Below are positions 20,986-37,454 of a stretch of DNA of 61,171 bases, in pieces. This DNA is from Myxococcota bacterium (GTDB taxonomy: Bacteria; Myxococcota; Myxococcia; Myxococcales; Myxococcaceae), in NCBI GenBank assembly GCA_049322255.1, contig JBMORE010000170.1, positions 1 to 61,171 of the forward strand. Reading direction: 5' to 3'. The stretch's first letter is position 1. The number at the start of each line of letters is the position of its first letter. A program made the position numbers and the translations under genes. The notes beneath the pieces were generated by a model. It worked only from the letters and a program-made list of their open reading frames with translations. It searched no databases and was not told the origin of the DNA.

Positions 20986-22065
20986 TCACGGCGAACCCAG
21001 GCGCTCGAACGAGAGGATTCGCCCCTCGCGATCACCACGGAACGCGACGTGTAGGACTTCACCTACCTCTGGAACCGGCTGCCCATCGACCCATTGCTCG
21101 AGGTGGCCGAAACGCCCTCCGGGGACGGTGACGCGCATACGCTTCGTGCACGCCGCCTCGGGACAGGTCAAGAGCTCGAGCTCGATTTCGGTGGAGAGGA
21201 GCGTCGTGCCTCGCGCGGGGGGGAGGAGCGTCGAGGCAACGACGCGGGCAGTTCCCACCAGCGGTGACTCCGCCTCGGCCCGCGCCCCCAGCGGCACCAA
21301 CAGGCTCACCATGACCATCGCCAAGACCGACCGGCGCACCCGGAGGAGCGGTACGAGCGTCAACAAGAGCCATGCGGCCAAGCCGGTCGCACCCGCGGAG
21401 CACCCGACGGTCTGCTCCCACTCCTCCGGGCTGGTTTCCGTCGCCGCGCCCTGTGACGGATACAGAACCTCGAGGCCCGAGACGTCGTCGGCGGTCAGCC
21501 GTCGTTTCCCGATGTCTCCCGGCGTCGCGGTTGGATACATGATGGACTCGCGATCATCGAGATTGTGCGCAAGGCCCACGGCGTGACCCAGCTCGTGGGT
21601 GAAGGTGCCCTGAACGTCATATTCCGACGCAGCCCCATGGGGCTTTTGGATGACGCGGAATTTCTTTTTCGGGTTGAAGGCAATGTCCGCGTCGACGATG
21701 GAGTGCGAGCGGGTGTCCACCGTCACCACGGTGACCGCGAGAAGGTCGTCGTCAAAGGCCCAGTGCTCGGCGAGCAGAACGTCGTTCTGATTGGCTTCGG
21801 GTACGTCGAAGTCGTACCCCACTCCGCGGGTCTTTCCCTCGCGCATCGACAGGGACAGGCTGGGCGTTCCCAGGTCGAGTGTCTCCGCCGCGGTGCGAAT
21901 CGCCTCGAGGCTAGCGTCGTCTCCCATCCGCGCGGCGAGCTGGCGCTCGATGACGAGCTCCACGTTCTTCTTCCAGCGCACGACCTCTCCGGTCGAATCG
22001 CGCTTGAGCTCGAAGGCCGAGGCGGTGCAGGCCAACAGCAGGGCGGCGACGAAGAAAGGCCTCAT
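20986..22065 (-). CDS. Matrixin-family metalloprotease with an internal MYXO-CTERM-like signal and an extra C-terminal domain
   Basis: Signal peptide, HELGHAVGLAH, SIMYP Met-turn, VGCSAG...WLLLTLVPLLRVRR. Confidence 0.85.
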   Translation of the reverse strand: MRPFFVAALLLACTASAFELKRDSTGEVVRWKKNVELVIERQLAARMGDDASLEAIRTAAETLDLGTPSLSLSMREGKTRGVGYDFDVPEANQNDVLLAEHWAFDDDLLAVTVVTVDTRSHSIVDADIAFNPKKKFRVIQKPHGAASEYDVQGTFTHELGHAVGLAHNLDDRESIMYPTATPGDIGKRRLTADDVSGLEVLYPSQGAATETSPEEWEQTVGCSAGATGLAAWLLLTLVPLLRVRRSVLAMVMVSLLVPLGARAEAESPLVGTARVVASTLLPPARGTTLLSTEIELELLTCPEAACTKRMRVTVPGGRFGHLEQWVDGQPVPEVGEVLHVAFRGDREGRILSFERLGSP

Positions 22066-29342: not shown

Positions 29343-29912
29343 CTATAGGGGCCCTGCGTTACCGGTGGAGTCGCTGCCGGAGTTCTCGTCGCCCATTTGA
29401 GGGCGATCGATCAGCGCCTCCACCATGCGCAGCCGACCACCCTGTCTCAAGCTCTGGTCTACGCAGTAGGAGCGCACGATGGCGTGAAGATCTTGATCTG
29501 CTTTTGGATCGTTGTCGCCGTCTGGATTGTCGAGGAGGTAGACGAAGACCCGCAGGTTGGGGGCAGAGTCGGAAACGCCCCCGAGAATGCACCTGGTGCA
29601 GTTCGTCGGGGGGTTGATGTTCGCCAGCACGTCGGTCTGCACCTCTGTTTCGGTGGCGAAGACGGCGGGCCAATCTTCTGTGTTTCTCGTCGTGCCGACC
29701 CATTGGGCTCCCCTGCGCAGGCCTTCTTCGGCGCAGAGCAGCGATTCTTTTTCACGCCGGTCGTCGCCGGCTGCCCGCATGGCGCTGGAGGCGTACGAGA
29801 GCATGATGCCGCCCAGAACAAGCAAGACCAGCACCACGAACATCGCTAGGAGGAGCGCCGCGCCTCGAGGCTGGCCAGCGGAACGGCGCAAGCTCGTTCG
29901 TCGCTTCGTCAT
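29343..29912 (-). CDS. pilX: PilX-like minor pilin
   Basis: Basic leader RG|AALLLAMFVV lacking Glu5; AEEGL motif. Confidence 0.75.
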   Translation of the reverse strand: MTKRRTSLRRSAGQPRGAALLLAMFVVLVLLVLGGIMLSYASSAMRAAGDDRREKESLLCAEEGLRRGAQWVGTTRNTEDWPAVFATETEVQTDVLANINPPTNCTRCILGGVSDSAPNLRVFVYLLDNPDGDNDPKADQDLHAIVRSYCVDQSLRQGGRLRMVEALIDRPQMGDENSGSDSTGNAGPL

Positions 29913-31315
29913 AACGTCGTCCTGGAAAGGTTTCGCAAGGATGCCTCACCCTGGAAGATTCGGTACCGGGCGTTGTCGACGATGTCGACCACCGTAGGAA
30001 AGGTTTCGTCCTCCAGAGGGCTCAACGAATTCTCGCCCGCGAGCTGAAACCCACCCCCCGAGCACCCTGCGGCTGCCTGGGCGCGGCCCAGCACCGTGAT
30101 GCGCACGCTCTTGAGCCGCTTCAGCTGATCTTTGAAGGCGTTCTGATCGAGGTAGTTGGGGTTGGGCATGCAGTTGTTCCAAGGAGCGGCTCCGCCGATG
30201 GGCGCGGGACACGGAGCGGCCCTCCAATCCCAGTCGTTGCGAGCTCCTGGATCATCCGCGGTGTGGCCGCTCTGATTGGTGTCCGTGGTGACCCCATCAT
30301 TCATGAGTTGGTCGTCGTTCGCGTCGAAACCGAAGGCGAACTGGATGTTGAGGAGGTCCTTGGCGATCATTTCTCCGGGAGGGGCAGCCCCGAGAGCGCC
30401 GCCTGGTGCCATGGTGATTGGATCCACCCGGTGGCGCTGTAGAAACCAAAGGTAGGTGTCGTCACCGGCGATTTTTGGGGTGGTGGCGGTTCCGACGGAA
30501 AAGCGCTGCGAGCGTACCAAGGAAACCAAAGAGCCGGCCTGGTACCCATCGTCGAGGGTGGTTGGGTCGTCTCCCGGCACGAGATTGGGTGTCAGGCCGT
30601 CGACGCAGCTCGAGCCGGCAAAGGAATCGCCCAAGGTGACGAGGCCTTCGTCCGCTGCGACGACCGAGAACGAAGTCACGCAGACGAGGCTTGTCTCCTG
30701 GCCGTTGGAGATGAACAACCAATCGTCTCGTTGCGGGGTCCAGGCGCCAGCGCCGGCCCCGATGCGAACGAAAATGTTGTTGCCCGTCGACTGGTCAGCG
30801 GGCCGGGTGAGCATGGTTCGTCTTTCTCTGTCGCCGCGGACGATGACGATGTTGTCGGGTTGAAGGCCGACATCCGGCAGGCAGCAAGAGCCCCACAGCC
30901 GCCCGAGCCCTCCTGCGCAAGCAGGACCCGCTGCAGCCCCCGGGACGACTTGGGCTGGACGCAACACACTGGCGGGCCAAACGGTGGCGAACGGCGCGGG
31001 CCAGCTCTGCGTGTGAACGACGCCGAAGTTGGAAAGGGGGTTCGCCCGAATGACGGGAAGGAACGTCACGTTTCCGTTCACGTTCGCTCGGAACACTCCG
31101 TTCGGCGCGCCGAAGCCAGCAAGACGCAGCTCGTTGGTCAGCACGCGCATGGCGAGTGCCGAGGAGGCGTTCAGGCTGGTGGTGCGCCGGTTCGCCTCGT
31201 GCTGGGAAGTGAAATACACCAGCGCCGACGCTGCGGCCGCCAGCACCAAGACCAGGATGGCGGAGCTCACCAGGACCTCGAGCAGCGTGAAACCGCCCCG
31301 ACGACGCATGGTCAC
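29909..31315 (-). CDS. pilW: PilW-like minor pilin (large, 468 aa)
   Basis: RRRGG|FTLLEVLV, ELRLAGFG, IQFAFGFD, VRITVLGR, C-terminal LRNL. Confidence 0.8.
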   Translation of the reverse strand: MTMRRRGGFTLLEVLVSSAILVLVLAAAASALVYFTSQHEANRRTTSLNASSALAMRVLTNELRLAGFGAPNGVFRANVNGNVTFLPVIRANPLSNFGVVHTQSWPAPFATVWPASVLRPAQVVPGAAAGPACAGGLGRLWGSCCLPDVGLQPDNIVIVRGDRERRTMLTRPADQSTGNNIFVRIGAGAGAWTPQRDDWLFISNGQETSLVCVTSFSVVAADEGLVTLGDSFAGSSCVDGLTPNLVPGDDPTTLDDGYQAGSLVSLVRSQRFSVGTATTPKIAGDDTYLWFLQRHRVDPITMAPGGALGAAPPGEMIAKDLLNIQFAFGFDANDDQLMNDGVTTDTNQSGHTADDPGARNDWDWRAAPCPAPIGGAAPWNNCMPNPNYLDQNAFKDQLKRLKSVRITVLGRAQAAAGCSGGGFQLAGENSLSPLEDETFPTVVDIVDNARYRIFQGEASLRNLSRTTL

Positions 31316-33321
31316 TCCCTCCGGTCCACCACGAGACAGACCCCGCGCAAGCGGCCAGCGCGCCTATCCACCACTTGGCAGGGGTCGGCCCACTCTTCGA
31401 TGGTGAGAGGTGCTGGCAAATCGGGGTTGAAGGGGGGGCCGTCGTAGCTCACCCGAATGAACGCGCGGTGAAGGTTGCAGCGCGTGTCACCAGGCGGCCC
31501 CCCTGGATTCGGAGGACAGTTGGCCGGGCAGGAGCACCAACTGGCTGGGCCAGAGCACTGGTTGCAGAGGTCGGGGCTGACTCGCACCTGCATCATGAAC
31601 TGCCTTGATCTGAGCTCTGTGCCACAGGGAATCGGCACGACGCTCTTTTCCGACTCCTGGAAGCAGGTGTCGGCGAAGTTGGCACCAGTCTGAAAGTCTC
31701 TCAAGTTCTCGATCACCGTTCGCTCGGCGAGGCGGTTGGCGAGGGCGCTCGCCGCGTGGAGGCCTCGCACCCGCTCGTTGGTCTTGGACGCGCTCAGAAC
31801 GGCGGCCACCGTGCCGAGAATACCGATGGCGAGAACGGACCCGGCGGCCATCAGCTCGATGAGAGTGAACCCTCCCACTGCCCGCCGCCGTCGGCGCCCC
31901 GAATTTCGCCTTCGGTGGGCGAAGGTCGCGGCAAGCCCGAGCCAGGCCAGTCCTGGGCCGCCTGCTCCACACCCACACGGGGGGGGCTCGGGCACAGACC
32001 CGGCCTCGGTCACCTCGATGCCGCTCGCCACCGTCAGCGTTCCCTCCGACGTCTGCGCAGAAACCTCCCGCCTTCCCAATTCGGCAGTGGGCTCGACGTC
32101 GAGGAGGAGCTCGAGCTGGCTGGAGTCGATGGCCGTGGCGCTCACGACGGAGACACCCGCGCCGGTGATGGACACCGAAGCTCCCTGGGGAAACGTGGCA
32201 TCGATGGCCGAAAGCCGAATCGTGCCCTGAGCGCCGCGCGATACGATTCGAGGCGCGGCCCGTAGGCTAGGGGAGAAGACATCGAGCGCGCCCACTGCCG
32301 CATCGACACCGCTCGACACTTTGAGGACGACGTCTCGATCGGCCGGCGCCGCGGCGGTGGCCGTGATGACACTCGTCAACTCGGTGTCGCTCACCACTTG
32401 CACCTGCTCCACCTTGACCTCGGGGTCGAGCGCCAGGACACGGGTGGGGCTCGCGGTGAAGCGTGTGCCGGAAGAGGTGAGCCGCACCACGGTCGGCTCG
32501 CCCGGCTTGACCTTCGCCGGCTCGAGGGTGAGGGGTTTGGAAGCGCGCACGGTGAGACCACCCACGAGGGTGACCTCCTCATATCCGTCTCGCTCGGTGA
32601 TGACGGTGGCGGAATAAGTGCCCGGCACGATGGTGTGGCTGACCGACAAGACGGCATCGGCCCTCGCCGGATCGGTCGGAGCCGAAGAAACCGTGGCAAC
32701 GATGCCCGAGAGAGGAAAGGAGAACCGCGTGCCCTGACCGAAGTGTGTGTTGGCGCCGATGGCGGTGAGGCCGACGCCCTCGGCTCCCGAATCGACTTCG
32801 CTGGGAGAGAGGGAGACGAGCCGCGTCTTCGGGCTCTGCTTCACCAAGAGGCCCTTGGGAAGGGTGTAGGTGGCGTTGAAGACGTTGGTTCCCTTGGGGC
32901 TGATGGTGAAGATGACGGTGCGTGGCCCGGGCATCGCCTCGAGCGCGGCGGAGACCACCATCTCGGCACGGTCGTAGCTTTCGCCCTGCGGCGAAACGAC
33001 ACGGACCGGTCCTGCGCTGACCAGGCCGTCGCCGGCCACCACCGCCGAGACGTTGTAGCGGCTTTCGGTAGAGGTCGTCGTCTCGAGCTCGAAGCCTGGG
33101 TGGTGAGACCGAATCAGGATCGTCGCCGAACCCTCCTGCTCGACCGCTCCCGCGACGGCTGGGTTCGTCCCCATGACGGTGAGACAAATCTCCTCAGCTG
33201 CATCTTCCACGGGGCCGACGCACCCTGTACCGGGGTGCGCCTGACCGAAGGCCACCGAGCCCCCCAACGTGCTCGCTACGGCAACTGCCAGGGCGAACGG
33301 GATGGCAGCATCTCGTTTCAT
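31312..33321 (-). CDS. Fusion protein: signal peptide, Ig-like repeats, MYXO-CTERM-like signal, PilV-like prepilin
   Basis: Uninterrupted frame; PPPCGCGAGGPGLAWLGLAATFAHRRRNSGRRRRRAVGG|FTLIELMAAGSVLAIGILG; coupled to both neighbours. Confidence 0.8.
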   Translation of the reverse strand: MKRDAAIPFALAVAVASTLGGSVAFGQAHPGTGCVGPVEDAAEEICLTVMGTNPAVAGAVEQEGSATILIRSHHPGFELETTTSTESRYNVSAVVAGDGLVSAGPVRVVSPQGESYDRAEMVVSAALEAMPGPRTVIFTISPKGTNVFNATYTLPKGLLVKQSPKTRLVSLSPSEVDSGAEGVGLTAIGANTHFGQGTRFSFPLSGIVATVSSAPTDPARADAVLSVSHTIVPGTYSATVITERDGYEEVTLVGGLTVRASKPLTLEPAKVKPGEPTVVRLTSSGTRFTASPTRVLALDPEVKVEQVQVVSDTELTSVITATAAAPADRDVVLKVSSGVDAAVGALDVFSPSLRAAPRIVSRGAQGTIRLSAIDATFPQGASVSITGAGVSVVSATAIDSSQLELLLDVEPTAELGRREVSAQTSEGTLTVASGIEVTEAGSVPEPPPCGCGAGGPGLAWLGLAATFAHRRRNSGRRRRRAVGGFTLIELMAAGSVLAIGILGTVAAVLSASKTNERVRGLHAASALANRLAERTVIENLRDFQTGANFADTCFQESEKSVVPIPCGTELRSRQFMMQVRVSPDLCNQCSGPASWCSCPANCPPNPGGPPGDTRCNLHRAFIRVSYDGPPFNPDLPAPLTIEEWADPCQVVDRRAGRLRGVCLVVDRRE

Positions 33322-36300
33322 TAGGGGATCCACGATTCAATCCAGTAGATGAACCGAGAGAAAGCACCACTCGTTTTCCCGGGAGTGCTGTCCTCGGTGG
33401 GAGCAGAAGGACCTTCGAGCCTGGTGATGCCGTCCGTCGACGCGGCGTACACACCGCTTTCGCCGACGGCGACCGACGCCGCCACCTGACCGACGTCGAC
33501 GGGGTAGGTCACTTGAGGCACGGTCACGTCGCAAACGTCCTTCTTGTACACGTGGCCTGACTCCCCCTTCACCGCATCGGCCGCTTTCACCGCCGCCGTA
33601 TTGCCGGTGCTTGTCACCAGGTACGCCTTGCATCCACGAATCACCGGCGCGGCAAAGACCCGTTCACCCCACGTACTTCCGACGGGGTAGAAGTAGCCCT
33701 TCCACGTCTCCTCCCAGTACTGCACCGGGTTGGTCGTGTACGCGGCGGTCGACATCTTCCAGATGCGCCCCGCCCCCTTGTCGACGGGGTCGTAGACACC
33801 ATCTCCGTCGTTGTCCATCGAGGTGGTGGCCAGATCGCGCGTGTCGTCGGCGTTGACTATCACTTGGTAGGAGATTCCCGGAGCCCAGTCGACTCCGCTA
33901 CCGGTCACCGCGAGCACGCCCAGCCTACTCATGTTCTGGCCGGACTGCGGTCGGAACGCAGCGAGCGAAACCCCCACCGGATCGGGGAACCAGTACCAGT
34001 CCATGTCGAAGAGCGGAATGGGAAAGGCGGGCTTGCCGCTCTTGATTCTGAACCAGCGGTTGACGGGTCGCTCCGAGTCAGTGAGTTGTGCTTCCCACAC
34101 CCGCCCCTCGAGATCGGGAATGAATACGGTGTCGGTGATGCCATCTTGATCTCGGTCGAGGAGCGTCGGCCGGGGCGGAATGTCGCCCAGGTTTGGCCGG
34201 CGTGGGCTCATCCACCAGTATTTTTGCATGCCGTACCACGAGCTGGTCGAGTCGACGGTCGAGTTGTAATAGCGGAAGAAGTGCCACCACTTGTCGGTGC
34301 AGTTGTACAGGGGTAGCCCTGTTTTGATGTCCAGAGCGAGCGTCAGGAAGCCCTGCGGGTGACCCCAGGGCGGGGGCGGGGCCGTGCCGGTGACGAAAGG
34401 CTCGCCTGGATCCTGGATGCCGTCCTCATCTGTGTCGAGGTAGGAGCGGTTTTGCGCGGTGAAGATGACCGCCGAGACAGGTCTTAGGCCGATGCGCATC
34501 TCGGCAATCACTGCACCGGCCGACTCGCCCAGCACGTGCGCCGCGTTGGGCTGGGTGACGTCATAGGTCTTCTTGGCGCTGTCGGAGTGGTCTACGTCGG
34601 TCAGCTTACAGGTATTGAACGTGGGGTCCTGCGGGTCGCCCTTCTCCCAGAGCACCTCGACCTTGTCCCACGACGTCGGGTCGGTCACGTCGAGCGCGAA
34701 GATGCGGTTCCCGCCCTCCCGGAGGGTGCCGACCAGTACGGTGCGCCACTGTCGTTTGCCCGTTCCGTCAAAGTCCTCGAACACGTCCGAAACCGCCAAG
34801 ACGCCATCGACCAGGGCCGAGTTGGTGCGGAGCCTGGTGAGCTGGCTGTTGGGCAAAAACGACCAGAGCACGGTGCCCGGCGCAGGGGGGGAGAAGCCAG
34901 GGTGACTGTCGCCCCCCGAGACATAGACGGCATGCACCTGGCCGTCGAGCGCGCCAAAGTAGGCGATGGTGGGCCGGGTGCCCTTGGCGGCGCCCGGAGG
35001 GTTGCGGTAGCCAGCCACGGCGCTGGGAGGGACGAGCACTGGCGTCGAGCGGTCGATGCCTCCCAGGCGCGGCCTGATGTTGTCGTACGGGTCTCCGTTG
35101 TAGGCGCCGGTCGCTTCGCAGAAGGAGGGGACATTGGGAGGGGCGACCGTCGTATTCCATCGGCAGCCCGCGCGCGCCCGGAGCACCTGCTCGATCAATG
35201 CCCTGGCGTCGGCGGCACTGCCCACCCCGACCAACTTCTTGAGCTGTCCTGGGGGGATGACCGCCTTGCTGCCGATGTCGTACAGCAGCTCCTTTTCGAA
35301 GGGGCCGGCTTTCTCTGGATTGGAGGGTGCTCCATCGGCCTTACACGTCGCCGAGCCGGCCGACTCCGGGCAATAAAAATGGGTGAACACGGCGCGCTCG
35401 TACCAGGGCTTGGGCTTGGCGACCCAGGTGATGGTGATGCCTTCGAAATCTTTGCGGCTCAACAGCGGGATGGGGCCGGTCGGATATTCGCGGAAGTTCC
35501 CAGGCACCGAGGGGAAGACCCAGTTGTTGGCGTCGGCGGCGGAGGTGAAGGTGTCGGTGGTGGTGATGTCGAGGAGGGCGTTCGATTGGCGGAAGGTGCC
35601 TTGGTACAGCTCTTCTCCTTTGACGATGGGGTTTCCGTCGTGAAGCACCGGCGAGGAGCGGGCCAGCTCGGTCTCCCTGATTTGGAAGCCCAGCCCGAAG
35701 AGGCTGCTCATCACCAAGCGGATACCGTCGGTCTTCCCATCGTAGGTGTCGCCCTCGAGGTAGACGACGATGCCCGCTTCCGGGTTGGCGGGGTCCTTGT
35801 AGATGGTGAACCAATCGTTCTCTTCCGCCGGCAAGCCGGTGCAGCCCGTGGAGTTCTTGCAGCCGAAGATGAGCCGGGTCACGCCCGCCTTGTATCCACC
35901 CGCGGCTGGGTCGTAGCTGTAAACGGCAGGACGCGCTGCTCCGTAACGGTTGGCACCGACGGTATACGGTGCCCAGCTCTTGGTGTTGCCGCCCGTGCCG
36001 AGGAAATAGAAGTCGCCGACCTGCAGCAGCAGGTTCCTGAACTGGGTCGGGTTGTAGGTGGTTTTTATGTTGCAAGGAGTGCTGCAGATATTTCCACCGC
36101 AGCCTGAGGCCAGGTTACAGCACCCGACGCAGCTCCCCGAGGTTCCTGAGGGCGAACCGAGCCCCGGGTTTCTCTGCAACCCGTTTTGGCTCATGAAGCT
36201 GGTGATGAGGTTGGGGTAGGTGACCGAGCGGACGGGGGGGCTCTCGAAGCTCGGCACCCCCGCGCACTCCGAAATCACCGCTCCGCCCGCCTTGTTGAAA

Positions 36301-37454
36301 TTGACGATTTCCTCGAAGTAGCGCGCCCCGTTGGGCTTGCCCGTCACACCGTTCATGCCGGTCGGCGAGCTCCAGTGGGGAAACCAGGCTTCGGTGTAAT
36401 AGAGGCGCCCATCCGTCAGCCTCCACTGGGAAAGGACCTTGTCGTCGTAGGCCGCATCGACCATCGCGTCCGAGCCGGCGTTGTCCCCGAACACGTCGTA
36501 GACCTGCCCAGGCCCCGCGTGGGTGCGTCCGCCAAAGACCCCGTTGATGAATCCGCCTTTCACCATGAAGGGTTGGGGCTTCACAGTTCCGGTGCTGACA
36601 TACCGGCCCATCGCCGGGCCGATGGTGCAGGTCGCGCTCGCGCAGGAGGCGAGCTCGCGAATCCGGCAACACGAGTCGCTGTCCAAGTCGACGAGCGTCG
36701 CCGATGCGAAGTCGAGACCCGACTGGTCCATGTACGCGGACATTTTCGTGTAGTCGGTGCCTGACGCATTGACCATGACCGGTCGCATCGACTCGTTCAT
36801 GATTTTGGCGACGTCACCATTGAAGGAGACCTGGGCTTGGTAAATTCGAACGTTGGCAAAGAAGGTGGCGTAGTTGCCTCCGCTCGCGCGGGTCGGCGGC
36901 ACCCGGGCCAACTGCTGAAGCACACGCAGTGCCCTGGCGGCTTCATTGGCATGAATGACGAATGGGCCGCCCTTGAACGACACGGTCCCAGTGGTTTGGG
37001 GGGCAATCGGATTGATGTTGTAGTACCAAGTGCCGGTGTACGGAGCAGCGCCCCGGTTGAGTTGGGCCACCGGCCACCACCAGGGACTGTTGATTTGGAG
37101 GTCGACTCCGTCGATCGACGTCTTGGCGGAGTTCACTATCCAGCTGACGGTGATACCGTGCCGGAGCAAGAACCAGAGCGTTCCATAGGTCATCGTCGCC
37201 GAGTTGGGCGGAGCGCCAATGGCCGGGTTTCCTGGTTTTGGGGTGAAGGTGGCCGCCGTCGGAGTGGTGTAGCCGCCGGACCACTCCGGGTTCTCGCACG
37301 GGGCAGCCGGCGAGGTGTTCTGGCCTGGCTGCCAGCAGTTGTCCATCGGGATGATGAGAGAACCTGCCGGGAAGGTTCGAATCTTCGCCCAGGCGGTGAC
37401 AGGAGCGGTGAAGGCGCCCGCCAACAAGAGCGCTGCGGTCATCCTGAGCTTCAT
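33321..37454 (-). CDS. pilY1: PilY1-like pilus tip adhesin (1377 aa)
   Basis: Signal peptide; PilC/PilY1 propeller motifs (YFGALDGQVHAV, LWSFLP, WRTVLVG...GG..IFALDVTDP, DRDQDGITD, DLEGRVW). Confidence 0.85.
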   Translation of the reverse strand: MKLRMTAALLLAGAFTAPVTAWAKIRTFPAGSLIIPMDNCWQPGQNTSPAAPCENPEWSGGYTTPTAATFTPKPGNPAIGAPPNSATMTYGTLWFLLRHGITVSWIVNSAKTSIDGVDLQINSPWWWPVAQLNRGAAPYTGTWYYNINPIAPQTTGTVSFKGGPFVIHANEAARALRVLQQLARVPPTRASGGNYATFFANVRIYQAQVSFNGDVAKIMNESMRPVMVNASGTDYTKMSAYMDQSGLDFASATLVDLDSDSCCRIRELASCASATCTIGPAMGRYVSTGTVKPQPFMVKGGFINGVFGGRTHAGPGQVYDVFGDNAGSDAMVDAAYDDKVLSQWRLTDGRLYYTEAWFPHWSSPTGMNGVTGKPNGARYFEEIVNFNKAGGAVISECAGVPSFESPPVRSVTYPNLITSFMSQNGLQRNPGLGSPSGTSGSCVGCCNLASGCGGNICSTPCNIKTTYNPTQFRNLLLQVGDFYFLGTGGNTKSWAPYTVGANRYGAARPAVYSYDPAAGGYKAGVTRLIFGCKNSTGCTGLPAEENDWFTIYKDPANPEAGIVVYLEGDTYDGKTDGIRLVMSSLFGLGFQIRETELARSSPVLHDGNPIVKGEELYQGTFRQSNALLDITTTDTFTSAADANNWVFPSVPGNFREYPTGPIPLLSRKDFEGITITWVAKPKPWYERAVFTHFYCPESAGSATCKADGAPSNPEKAGPFEKELLYDIGSKAVIPPGQLKKLVGVGSAADARALIEQVLRARAGCRWNTTVAPPNVPSFCEATGAYNGDPYDNIRPRLGGIDRSTPVLVPPSAVAGYRNPPGAAKGTRPTIAYFGALDGQVHAVYVSGGDSHPGFSPPAPGTVLWSFLPNSQLTRLRTNSALVDGVLAVSDVFEDFDGTGKRQWRTVLVGTLREGGNRIFALDVTDPTSWDKVEVLWEKGDPQDPTFNTCKLTDVDHSDSAKKTYDVTQPNAAHVLGESAGAVIAEMRIGLRPVSAVIFTAQNRSYLDTDEDGIQDPGEPFVTGTAPPPPWGHPQGFLTLALDIKTGLPLYNCTDKWWHFFRYYNSTVDSTSSWYGMQKYWWMSPRRPNLGDIPPRPTLLDRDQDGITDTVFIPDLEGRVWEAQLTDSERPVNRWFRIKSGKPAFPIPLFDMDWYWFPDPVGVSLAAFRPQSGQNMSRLGVLAVTGSGVDWAPGISYQVIVNADDTRDLATTSMDNDGDGVYDPVDKGAGRIWKMSTAAYTTNPVQYWEETWKGYFYPVGSTWGERVFAAPVIRGCKAYLVTSTGNTAAVKAADAVKGESGHVYKKDVCDVTVPQVTYPVDVGQVAASVAVGESGVYAASTDGITRLEGPSAPTEDSTPGKTSGAFSRFIYWIESWIP

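Follow-up and report, generated by a model that had tools for sequence, protein, structure and literature searches.

A PilV-class prepilin encoded in frame behind a MYXO-CTERM-like Ig-repeat protein in a Myxococcota bacterium

A 61,171-nucleotide contig of a Myxococcota bacterium (JBMORE010000170.1 of assembly GCA_049322255.1; this whole stretch is called the window) carries an open reading frame (ORF), here named P0001, that joins an exported immunoglobulin (Ig)-repeat protein to a type IV prepilin. From its N terminus, P0001 comprises a signal peptide, an N-terminal beta-sandwich, three IPT/TIG domains, a Cys-Gly-Cys/hydrophobic/Arg segment resembling the sorting tag MYXO-CTERM, and a complete PilV-class pilin. 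Judged from the sequences, the fusion is real, old, and rare. We propose, with a probability of roughly 0.6, that signal peptidase, the prepilin peptidase PilD, and the myxosortase MrtX cut this precursor, giving a mature tip pilin and a lipid-anchored surface protein. The parts of P0001 are listed below by position in the window.

31312-33321, minus strand: whole fused ORF P0001, 669 amino acids (aa) (stop-free translation; colinear homolog P0003)
33244-33321, minus strand: predicted Sec/type I signal peptide, residues 1-26 (hydropathy peak and alignment, by inspection)
32827-33243, minus strand: N-terminal beta-sandwich, residues 27-165, with a conserved Cys pair (AlphaFold model of mixed confidence; alignment)
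32005-32826, minus strand: three IPT/TIG-type Ig domains, residues 166-439 (AlphaFold; VIA-align matches)
31918-31977, minus strand: MYXO-CTERM-like segment, Cys449-Gly-Cys451 and a short, weakly hydrophobic stretch to residue 468 (sequence, conserved Cys pair, position homologous to terminal tags)
31870-31917, minus strand: basic loop, residues 469-484, with Gly-1 as its last residue; predicted to be cytoplasmic and to serve both as tail of the tag and as leader of the prepilin (8 of its residues are Arg, none is acidic)
31876-31878, minus strand: GTG at codon -3 relative to Phe+1; the junction has no other candidate for an internal start (codon scan)
31312-31869, minus strand: PilV-class pilin from Phe+1, with Glu+5 (best NCBIfam match TIGR02523, below its cut-off; tree clade)

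The fusion is present in two divergent proteins

A preliminary description of this DNA had claimed a single uninterrupted frame, and indeed the ORF translates without a stop. The junction positions given there were also correct: Cys449 lies at 31975-31977 and Phe485 (Phe+1 of the pilin) at 31867-31869. The GC content at third codon positions was 0.79 in each half, a coding-type value (neighboring genes, 0.75 to 0.82). No notable promoter-like site, terminator, or repeat was detected in a scan of the junction.

An exhaustive phmmer search (1.84 billion representatives; 243 proteins at an E value of ≤0.001, the best 150 of them listed) revealed a second fusion, P0003. This protein of 673 aa (E = 9.8e-107) is 37% identical to P0001 from end to end and colinear with it over residues 11 to 669. 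Its junction contains, in one frame, Cys-Gly-Cys, a hydrophobic stretch, a basic loop, and Gly-Phe-x-x-x-Glu. The two fusions agree in Gly-1, Phe+1, Thr, Leu, and Glu+5, and the last motif at the C terminus is near-identical. The tags are 45% identical, loop plus pilin helix 50%, the globular and Ig domains 32 to 47%, and the pilin heads 35%; in the linker ahead of the Cys motif, 0 of 7 residues agree. The distance from Cys to Phe is 36 residues in P0001 and 42 in P0003; since it differs by six residues, the junction has undergone an indel with the frame kept. We regard the fusion as old because a homolog of only 37% identity has the same layout, and a recent accident as unlikely because P0003 keeps the whole junction. 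No split, two-gene form was found among the best 150 of the 243 matches. The possibility that all relatives have two genes and P0001 is a recent fusion, which the preliminary description had named as a refuting outcome, is thus improbable.

Another such outcome, a stop or frameshift at the junction, was absent from a second assembly. A Logan contig of sequencing run X1 (mean word depth, 40.5), which possibly stems from the same sample as the window, spans positions 30800 to 33800 in one piece, with 0 other letters and 0 gaps; runs X2 and X3 gave no coverage of this stretch. It is highly improbable that the join is an assembly error, or a recent accident in which a four-base stop/start overlap like that of pilW and pilX lost two bases. 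Such a loss would fit the bases that end the Arg triplet, the operon uses such overlaps, and the confirming contig may share its sample with the window. However, this separately built, ~40-fold covered contig has 0 differences, P0003 carries the same fusion, and a split form is missing among the matches named above. A recent two-base loss was considered and dropped after P0003 appeared; it may still describe the origin of the fusion.

The exported half ends in a MYXO-CTERM-like tag

Hydropathy and alignment fit a signal peptide at residues 1 to 26 by inspection, in line with the Sec-type N terminus noted earlier. The predicted mature chain begins with QAH in both fusions. Residues 11 to 14 of P0003 form a lipobox-like motif within the signal peptide, which is absent from P0001; since the predicted mature start is common to both, type I cleavage is more likely than the lipoprotein route in P0003.

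The N-terminal beta-sandwich is the best-conserved large part of the two fusions (47% identity). The AlphaFold model of P0001, built from 37 sequences, is confident over residues 160 to 440 (predicted local distance difference test [pLDDT] mostly above 90 in the IPT/TIG domains) and less certain in the N-terminal domain. It suggests tandem Ig-like beta-sandwich repeats of about 85 to 95 residues with boundaries at 166-261, 262-348, and 350-439, which gave VIA-align matches to IPT/TIG domains with Z scores of 8 to 10 and a root mean square deviation of 2 to 3 Å over ~80 residues. About four Ig/IPT-like repeats had been described; according to AlphaFold and VIA-align, three are IPT/TIG domains, and the fourth is the distinct N-terminal beta-sandwich. 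P0001 itself had no Pfam match for its Ig repeats, while relatives of this half match PF09099 and PF01833 (PF09099 weakly in P0003). A PDB sequence search with P0001 returned three weak, IPT-containing matches, and a single-sequence fold was unusable (pLDDT, 33.9).

The Ig repeats are followed by Cys449-Gly-Cys451, which corresponds to the generic Cys motif of MYXO-CTERM (GCGC); both Cys residues are kept in P0003. Behind it lie an uncharged stretch of 18 residues with one Pro (predicted helix at 460-471, in a low-confidence part of the AlphaFold model) and the Arg clusters Arg470-472 and Arg476-480. The basic loop of P0003 has nine basic residues. The companions of MYXO-CTERM proteins are present as well, namely, a signal peptide (by hydropathy and alignment) and, in the genome, myxosortase and type II secretion system (T2SS) genes. 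The C-terminal position is not: about 200 residues follow the tag in P0001.

Stand-alone relatives point to the origin of this segment. A C-terminal Cys-hydrophobic-Arg end was found in 22 of the 149 non-self proteins among the best 150 of 243 phmmer matches. In a scan of 22 stand-alone relatives of this kind, 6 passed a MYXO-CTERM cut-off, 10 scored below it, and 6 had no match; the tag of P0003 reached 17.5 bits on TIGR03901 (cut-off, 20). The MYXO-CTERM model is said to miss lineage-specific members. In the stand-alone relatives, the tag comes after the last Ig repeat, the same position as in P0001. Furthermore, a quickly built tree of the Ig repeats alone (the 45 best rows out of 97, uneven in composition and with the tag excluded) separated the two fusions plus 15 relatives with a terminal tag from 28 relatives without one (SH-aLRT, 96). 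On motif, position, and homology, we read the P0001 tag as a descended, weakened MYXO-CTERM.

Of 18 genomes sampled from one family in another class, 13 also encode stand-alone Ig-repeat proteins of ~620 to 690 aa with a terminal MYXO-CTERM (loci L123-L135). They usually adjoin the same oppositely oriented gene, and they belong to no named family.

The second half is a PilV-class pilin with an internal prepilin signal

From Phe+1, the pilin has 185 aa and 10 Cys, 8 of them common to P0003; it had been described as a Cys-rich pilin of about this size. The features of a prepilin signal are a hydrophilic leader (residues 469-484), Gly484, Phe485, Glu489, and a hydrophobic helix (Kyte-Doolittle value KD19, 2.17). 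In P0003, the internal prepilin motif scored above the cut-offs (PF07963, 26.2; TIGR02532, 20.5). TIGR02523 gave 23 to 26 bits on the pilin half (23.1 in P0001), below its cut-off of 52.2, and was still the best NCBIfam match. In a tree of 51 prepilin N termini, the pilin fell into a clade with pilV-slot pilins and the GspI-slot pseudopilin of the genome (support, 98/88), the clade comprising 20 rows and the alignment 82 columns, which is few for so many rows. This clade places the pilin half in the PilV/GspI sequence class. The class III signal is not N-terminal, lying at residues 484 to 510 with no convincing start of its own.

Both fused pilin heads contain a CxxC...CxC cluster (residues 586-598; window 31525-31570, minus strand). 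Disulfides are expected there in the periplasm; a metal site would be the alternative.

The pilin could also be made from its own internal start, with the long ORF translated in addition and the in-frame join being incidental. As claimed earlier, the GTG at codon -3 is the only ATG, GTG, or TTG between the Cys motif and Phe+1; a CTG is found at codon -27. The position of this GTG would favor an internal start, PilD chiefly needs Gly-1 (PMC6497953, partial text), P0003 has a Val, a candidate start, 15 residues before Gly-Phe, and a GTG at codon -54 has GGAGG upstream. The last of these lies before the tag, so that an internal cut would still be required. The predicted anti-Shine-Dalgarno pairing of the junction GTG was -5.0 kcal/mol, compared to -9.5 for pilY1, -10.0 for pilW, -3.1 for the fusion ATG, and -4.0 for pilX. 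The fusion and pilX starts, which are also weakly paired, are sited in stop/start overlaps, whereas the junction GTG has no stop overlap for coupling. Moreover, its leader would lack basic residues, in contrast to the Arg-rich leaders of seven of seven related pilV genes. P0003 has neither Met nor Val at the equivalent position, and so the candidate starts of the two fusions do not correspond; nothing would hold the frame open through 63% divergence. An own start, the third outcome that would have spoken against the fusion, therefore looks unlikely.

Proposed processing of the precursor

In the pathway that we propose, Sec would export the Ig module, the hydrophobic stretch of the tag would stop transfer, and the loop with its eight Arg residues would remain cytoplasmic. 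The pilin helix would then re-insert with its N terminus in and its C terminus out, placing the Cys-rich head in the periplasm. This out-in-out topology is favored because eight to nine basic residues lie behind the tag and are followed by a strong pilin helix (positive-inside rule; PMC10191384, partial text). According to the same partial text, prepilins must lose their leader before assembly, the leader is of variable length and ends in Gly or Ala, and the peptidase works at the cytoplasmic face. PilD would cut P0001 at this face, after Gly484, and Phe485 would be methylated. Mature PilV, together with PilW, PilX, and PilY1, would prime the type IVa pilus.

One PilD cut had been suggested to yield both products at a 1:1 ratio. 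Such a single cut would be insufficient by analogy to the published MYXO-CTERM pathway, which adds an MrtX cut after Cys, and the 1:1 ratio would apply to synthesis only. Following that pathway, the Cys would be lipidated, MrtX would cut after it, and the T2SS would carry the Ig module to the surface, while a peptide of ~33 residues would stay in the membrane. The order of the cuts would be free: PilD acting first would leave an ordinary MYXO-CTERM precursor, and MrtX acting first would leave a prepilin with a membrane-bound leader. The Ig module might serve as an adhesin or a spacer produced alongside the tip complex at the level of a minor pilin, perhaps with the N-terminal domain as its binding end.

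Several observations weigh against this proposal. Both cuts are predictions from sequence, as are expression and piliation. The tag is weakly hydrophobic: its 13-residue Kyte-Doolittle value of 1.34 is the second lowest of 42 tags, and the 19-residue mean never exceeds 1.23 in either fusion. It was matched neither by TIGR03901 nor by TIGR03382, it was missed by a custom hidden Markov model (HMM) built from 38 tags of its own genome, and it scored -0.6 bits on a custom HMM of the relatives' tags. Of the MYXO-CTERM/transmembrane segment described earlier, the motif, the Arg cluster, and the homologous position thus stand, while all four HMMs were negative and hydrophobicity is weak. Whether the P0001 tag spans the membrane unaided is the main soft point. 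The prepilin motif of P0001 is also below the cut-offs (PF07963, 17.1 versus 21.2; TIGR02532, 13.3 versus 16.3), and Ala-Ala-Gly-Ser occurs early in its pilin helix. Finally, fimU was not found in the genome by a prepilin-motif scan; PF12019 was uninformative here, since it missed even the GspH-slot gene of the genome. With no fimU found, the tip complex is a reduced one under any reading.

The rarity of the fusion counts against the proposal, too. Two members are known, P0001 and P0003, and P0003 is a singleton on one 23-kb contig, known as a protein sequence alone. Neither 367 other genomes of the class nor a 400-genome sample of the phylum yielded a further fused member, and two GTDB scans gave no confirmed member and seven weak, pilin-only matches. 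In the phylum sample, the Ig part alone was matched in 15 of 400 other genomes; none of the 13 loci read had an adjoining prepilin. A DNA pattern of Cys-Gly-Cys, Arg-Arg, and the prepilin motif, which is blind to tags without Cys-Gly-Cys, matched 18 of 208 family genomes (207 besides the own one), and only the own copy was in frame. One of 64 parts of a metagenome collection yielded at least six weak matches, to the pilin only, and when relatives were sought with P0001, the weak matches in 11 of 60 other genomes fell on short stretches or on ordinary prepilins. All Atlas scores were below 0.9. In word-index protein searches the query itself was the sole match; these blanks mean little, because the P0001-P0003 pair was also missed.

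Two other fates of the precursor were considered. In the first, PilD frees the pilin, while the tag has decayed to a topogenic helix and MrtX is idle. The Ig module would then be extracted uncut or sit in the inner membrane facing the periplasm, where PilY1 or the pilus machine might be its target. The negative HMM results and the weak hydrophobicity of the tag agree with this outcome, as does the finding that uncleaved MYXO-CTERM proteins persist and are partly surface-located in an mrtX mutant (PMC11980579, partial text). However, both Cys residues are invariant in the two fusions while the preceding linker is not, MrtX cleavage of TraA depends on Cys residues (same partial text), and the P0003 tag was recognized. 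We consider this fate rather improbable, although less so than an internal start.

In the second, PilD never cuts the pilin, and the fusion, or its MrtX-trimmed form, would be a membrane protein holding the pilin head beside the Ig module; pili would be primed without free PilV or not be made. The sub-threshold prepilin motif of P0001 and the lack of a detected fimU are compatible with this, and in the literature searched no paper was found in which PilD cuts behind an upstream membrane helix. On the other hand, the residues around the PilD site are kept in both fusions, with P0003 passing the cut-offs; the intact genes pilW, pilX, and pilY1 are coupled by overlaps; and PilV is essential in Myxococcus xanthus. 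An uncut pilin therefore seems slightly less probable even than one with its own start.

The fused gene occupies the pilV slot of a minor-pilin operon

As described earlier, the fused ORF lies between pilY1 and pilW, and the sequence confirms the claimed overlaps with pilY1 (TAATG) and pilW (GTGA). The neighboring genes in the window are as follows.

33321-37454, minus strand: pilY1, 1377 aa, the only copy found in the genome (PF05567, 37.9 bits; its stop overlaps the fusion ATG)
29909-31315, minus strand: pilW-class prepilin gene (PF07963, 29.6 bits; homology to pilW-slot genes)
29343-29912, minus strand: pilX-class prepilin gene, no Glu+5 (weak GspK match; 23 to 28% identity to pilX-slot genes)

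A more likely pilW start than the one in the GTGA overlap is the ATG at 31309 with its strong ribosome-binding site. The pilin is thus encoded beside pilY1, pilW, and pilX, the context of a PilV minor pilin. In seven of the eight fetched clusters with the most similar PilY1, the order pilY1-pilV-pilW-pilX includes a stand-alone pilV (the eighth gave no clear gene order). In these seven, the Gly-1 codon follows the pilY1 stop by 30 to 31 bases, and pilV has its own Met and an Arg-rich leader. Since related clusters have pilV directly after pilY1, we take the Ig module to have been inserted into this slot. A MYXO-CTERM Ig gene may have entered between pilY1 and pilV and fused, with the Arg tail replacing the pilin leader. 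The only minor-pilin cluster of the genome (window 29343-37454, minus strand) and the related clusters of the seven fetched relatives alike lack fimU; M. xanthus clusters have it.

The genome (G000; 4.85 Mb, 99.6% complete) encodes the machinery that the proposed processing would use. PilD has both domains, and the MrtX core passes NF040593 (182.3 versus 180). Two MYXO-CTERM models gave 39 and 29 matches (E value up to 1); by these matches and the MrtX core, the genome is probably myxobacterial. By inspection, pilB, pilT, pilC, pilM, and pilN look intact. The T2SS secretin and pseudopilins are on contig C148. Three secretins were found: a PilQ-like one (C25), the GspD-like one (C148), and a third of an unassigned system (G000:C53:119148-119621). 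There are seven prepilin-motif matches in the genome: pilA, four T2SS pseudopilins, pilW, and the fused gene. By these sequence matches, the fused pilin is the only PilV-class tip pilin candidate found. Without the other clusters, M. xanthus depends on pilV3 for pilus extension (PMC7541494, partial text).

Relation to known proteins

P0001 resembles both an internal-MYXO-CTERM fusion and a PilV prepilin, and departs from both families in the position of the signal. One of the closest published cases is MXAN_5598 of M. xanthus, which has an internal MYXO-CTERM and for which fusion and processing were proposed by Guo, Haft, and Wall (mBio 2025; PMC11980579, partial text). Like P0001, it has an adhesin-like exported region, the internal tag, and a second protein in frame. 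However, its second part is an outer-membrane barrel with an OmpA domain, while that of P0001 is a type IV prepilin. P0001 would need a PilD cut at the cytoplasmic face, in contrast to the periplasmic signal peptidase for MXAN_5598. With terminal MYXO-CTERM proteins (TraA; TIGR03901; PMC11980579 and bioRxiv 10.1101/2023.06.07.544157, partial texts), P0001 shares the signal peptide, Cys-Gly-Cys, the hydrophobic stretch, the Arg cluster, and the presence of MrtX and T2SS in the genome. Unlike theirs, its tag lies 200 residues from the C terminus, is weakly hydrophobic, and scores below the HMM cut-offs.

With the PilV core minor pilins of M. xanthus clusters 1 to 3 (PMC7541494 and PMC13190605, partial texts), P0001 shares the position between pilY1 and pilW, Gly-Phe-x-x-x-Glu, the hydrophobic helix, the phylogenetic class, and the mature size. 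It differs in the place of its class III signal, which lies within the chain, at residue 484, preceded by a signal peptide, four domains, and a membrane segment; also, its cluster is without fimU. The available part of PMC10191384 defines the class III signal as N-terminal and calls substrate recognition by prepilin peptidases poorly understood.

An internal MYXO-CTERM is already in print; the internal prepilin site is the feature that we did not find there. In the literature searched (mostly open-access texts, without supplements), we found neither a MYXO-CTERM-pilin fusion described nor a larger precursor in which an internal prepilin site is processed. Reportedly, by the title of work of Abdul Halim et al. 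from 2017, a Haloferax volcanii ArtA substrate with a non-terminal tripartite tag is processed. As in P0001, that sorting tag is away from the C terminus; the case differs in being archaeal, with another sorting enzyme and no pilin in the title.

If the proposed processing is true, an essential tip pilin originates as the C-terminal part of a surface protein, through an internal class III site behind a membrane helix. It is about an even chance that PilD is a polyprotein-processing enzyme, the Arg tail of MYXO-CTERM a general joint for export signals in myxobacteria, and the Ig protein a dedicated surface partner of the pilus. A positive cleavage result would mean that PilD needs a cytoplasmic loop only, a free N terminus being dispensable, and that pilin finders limited to N termini miss tip pilins. 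The fused gene is a compact natural test, since it encodes the sole copy of a pilin of a class essential in M. xanthus, with the site behind a membrane segment. The fusion also extends internal MYXO-CTERM joins from Sec-type partners to pilins, with the weight of the finding limited by its rarity.

Internal tags joined to export signals in the same genome

In three other ORFs of the genome, an internal tag leads directly into an Arg cluster, then a hydrophobic run and a site of the signal-peptidase type. It had been suggested that the Arg tail could double as the prepilin leader; the conserved MYXO-CTERM/Sec-signal hinges in this genome agree with its use as leader of the next export signal, which extends to the prepilin case by analogy. 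The first is a Matrixin-type metalloprotease gene (window 20986-22065, minus strand; partial NF041905 match), whose product has an internal MYXO-CTERM, an Arg cluster, and a second Sec-type signal, followed by a small domain with a conserved Cys pair. Its hinge was unbroken in 23 of 30 fetched loci; in six, the tag was terminal without the second domain, and in one, the hinge was broken. This count and the next include the own genome and kin that are not independent. The second ORF encodes a protein of 2044 aa (L096:910-7041; G000:C54:37409-43540, minus strand) with two related halves, which are joined by an internal MYXO-CTERM and a Sec-type signal, and with a second, terminal tag. Here the hinge was unbroken in 23 of 25 fetched loci, the tag was terminal in one, and one locus was ended by a contig edge. 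The third (L097; G000:C30:22590-26984, minus strand) is a tandem duplicate of an exported domain with a tag-plus-signal hinge and a terminal tag.

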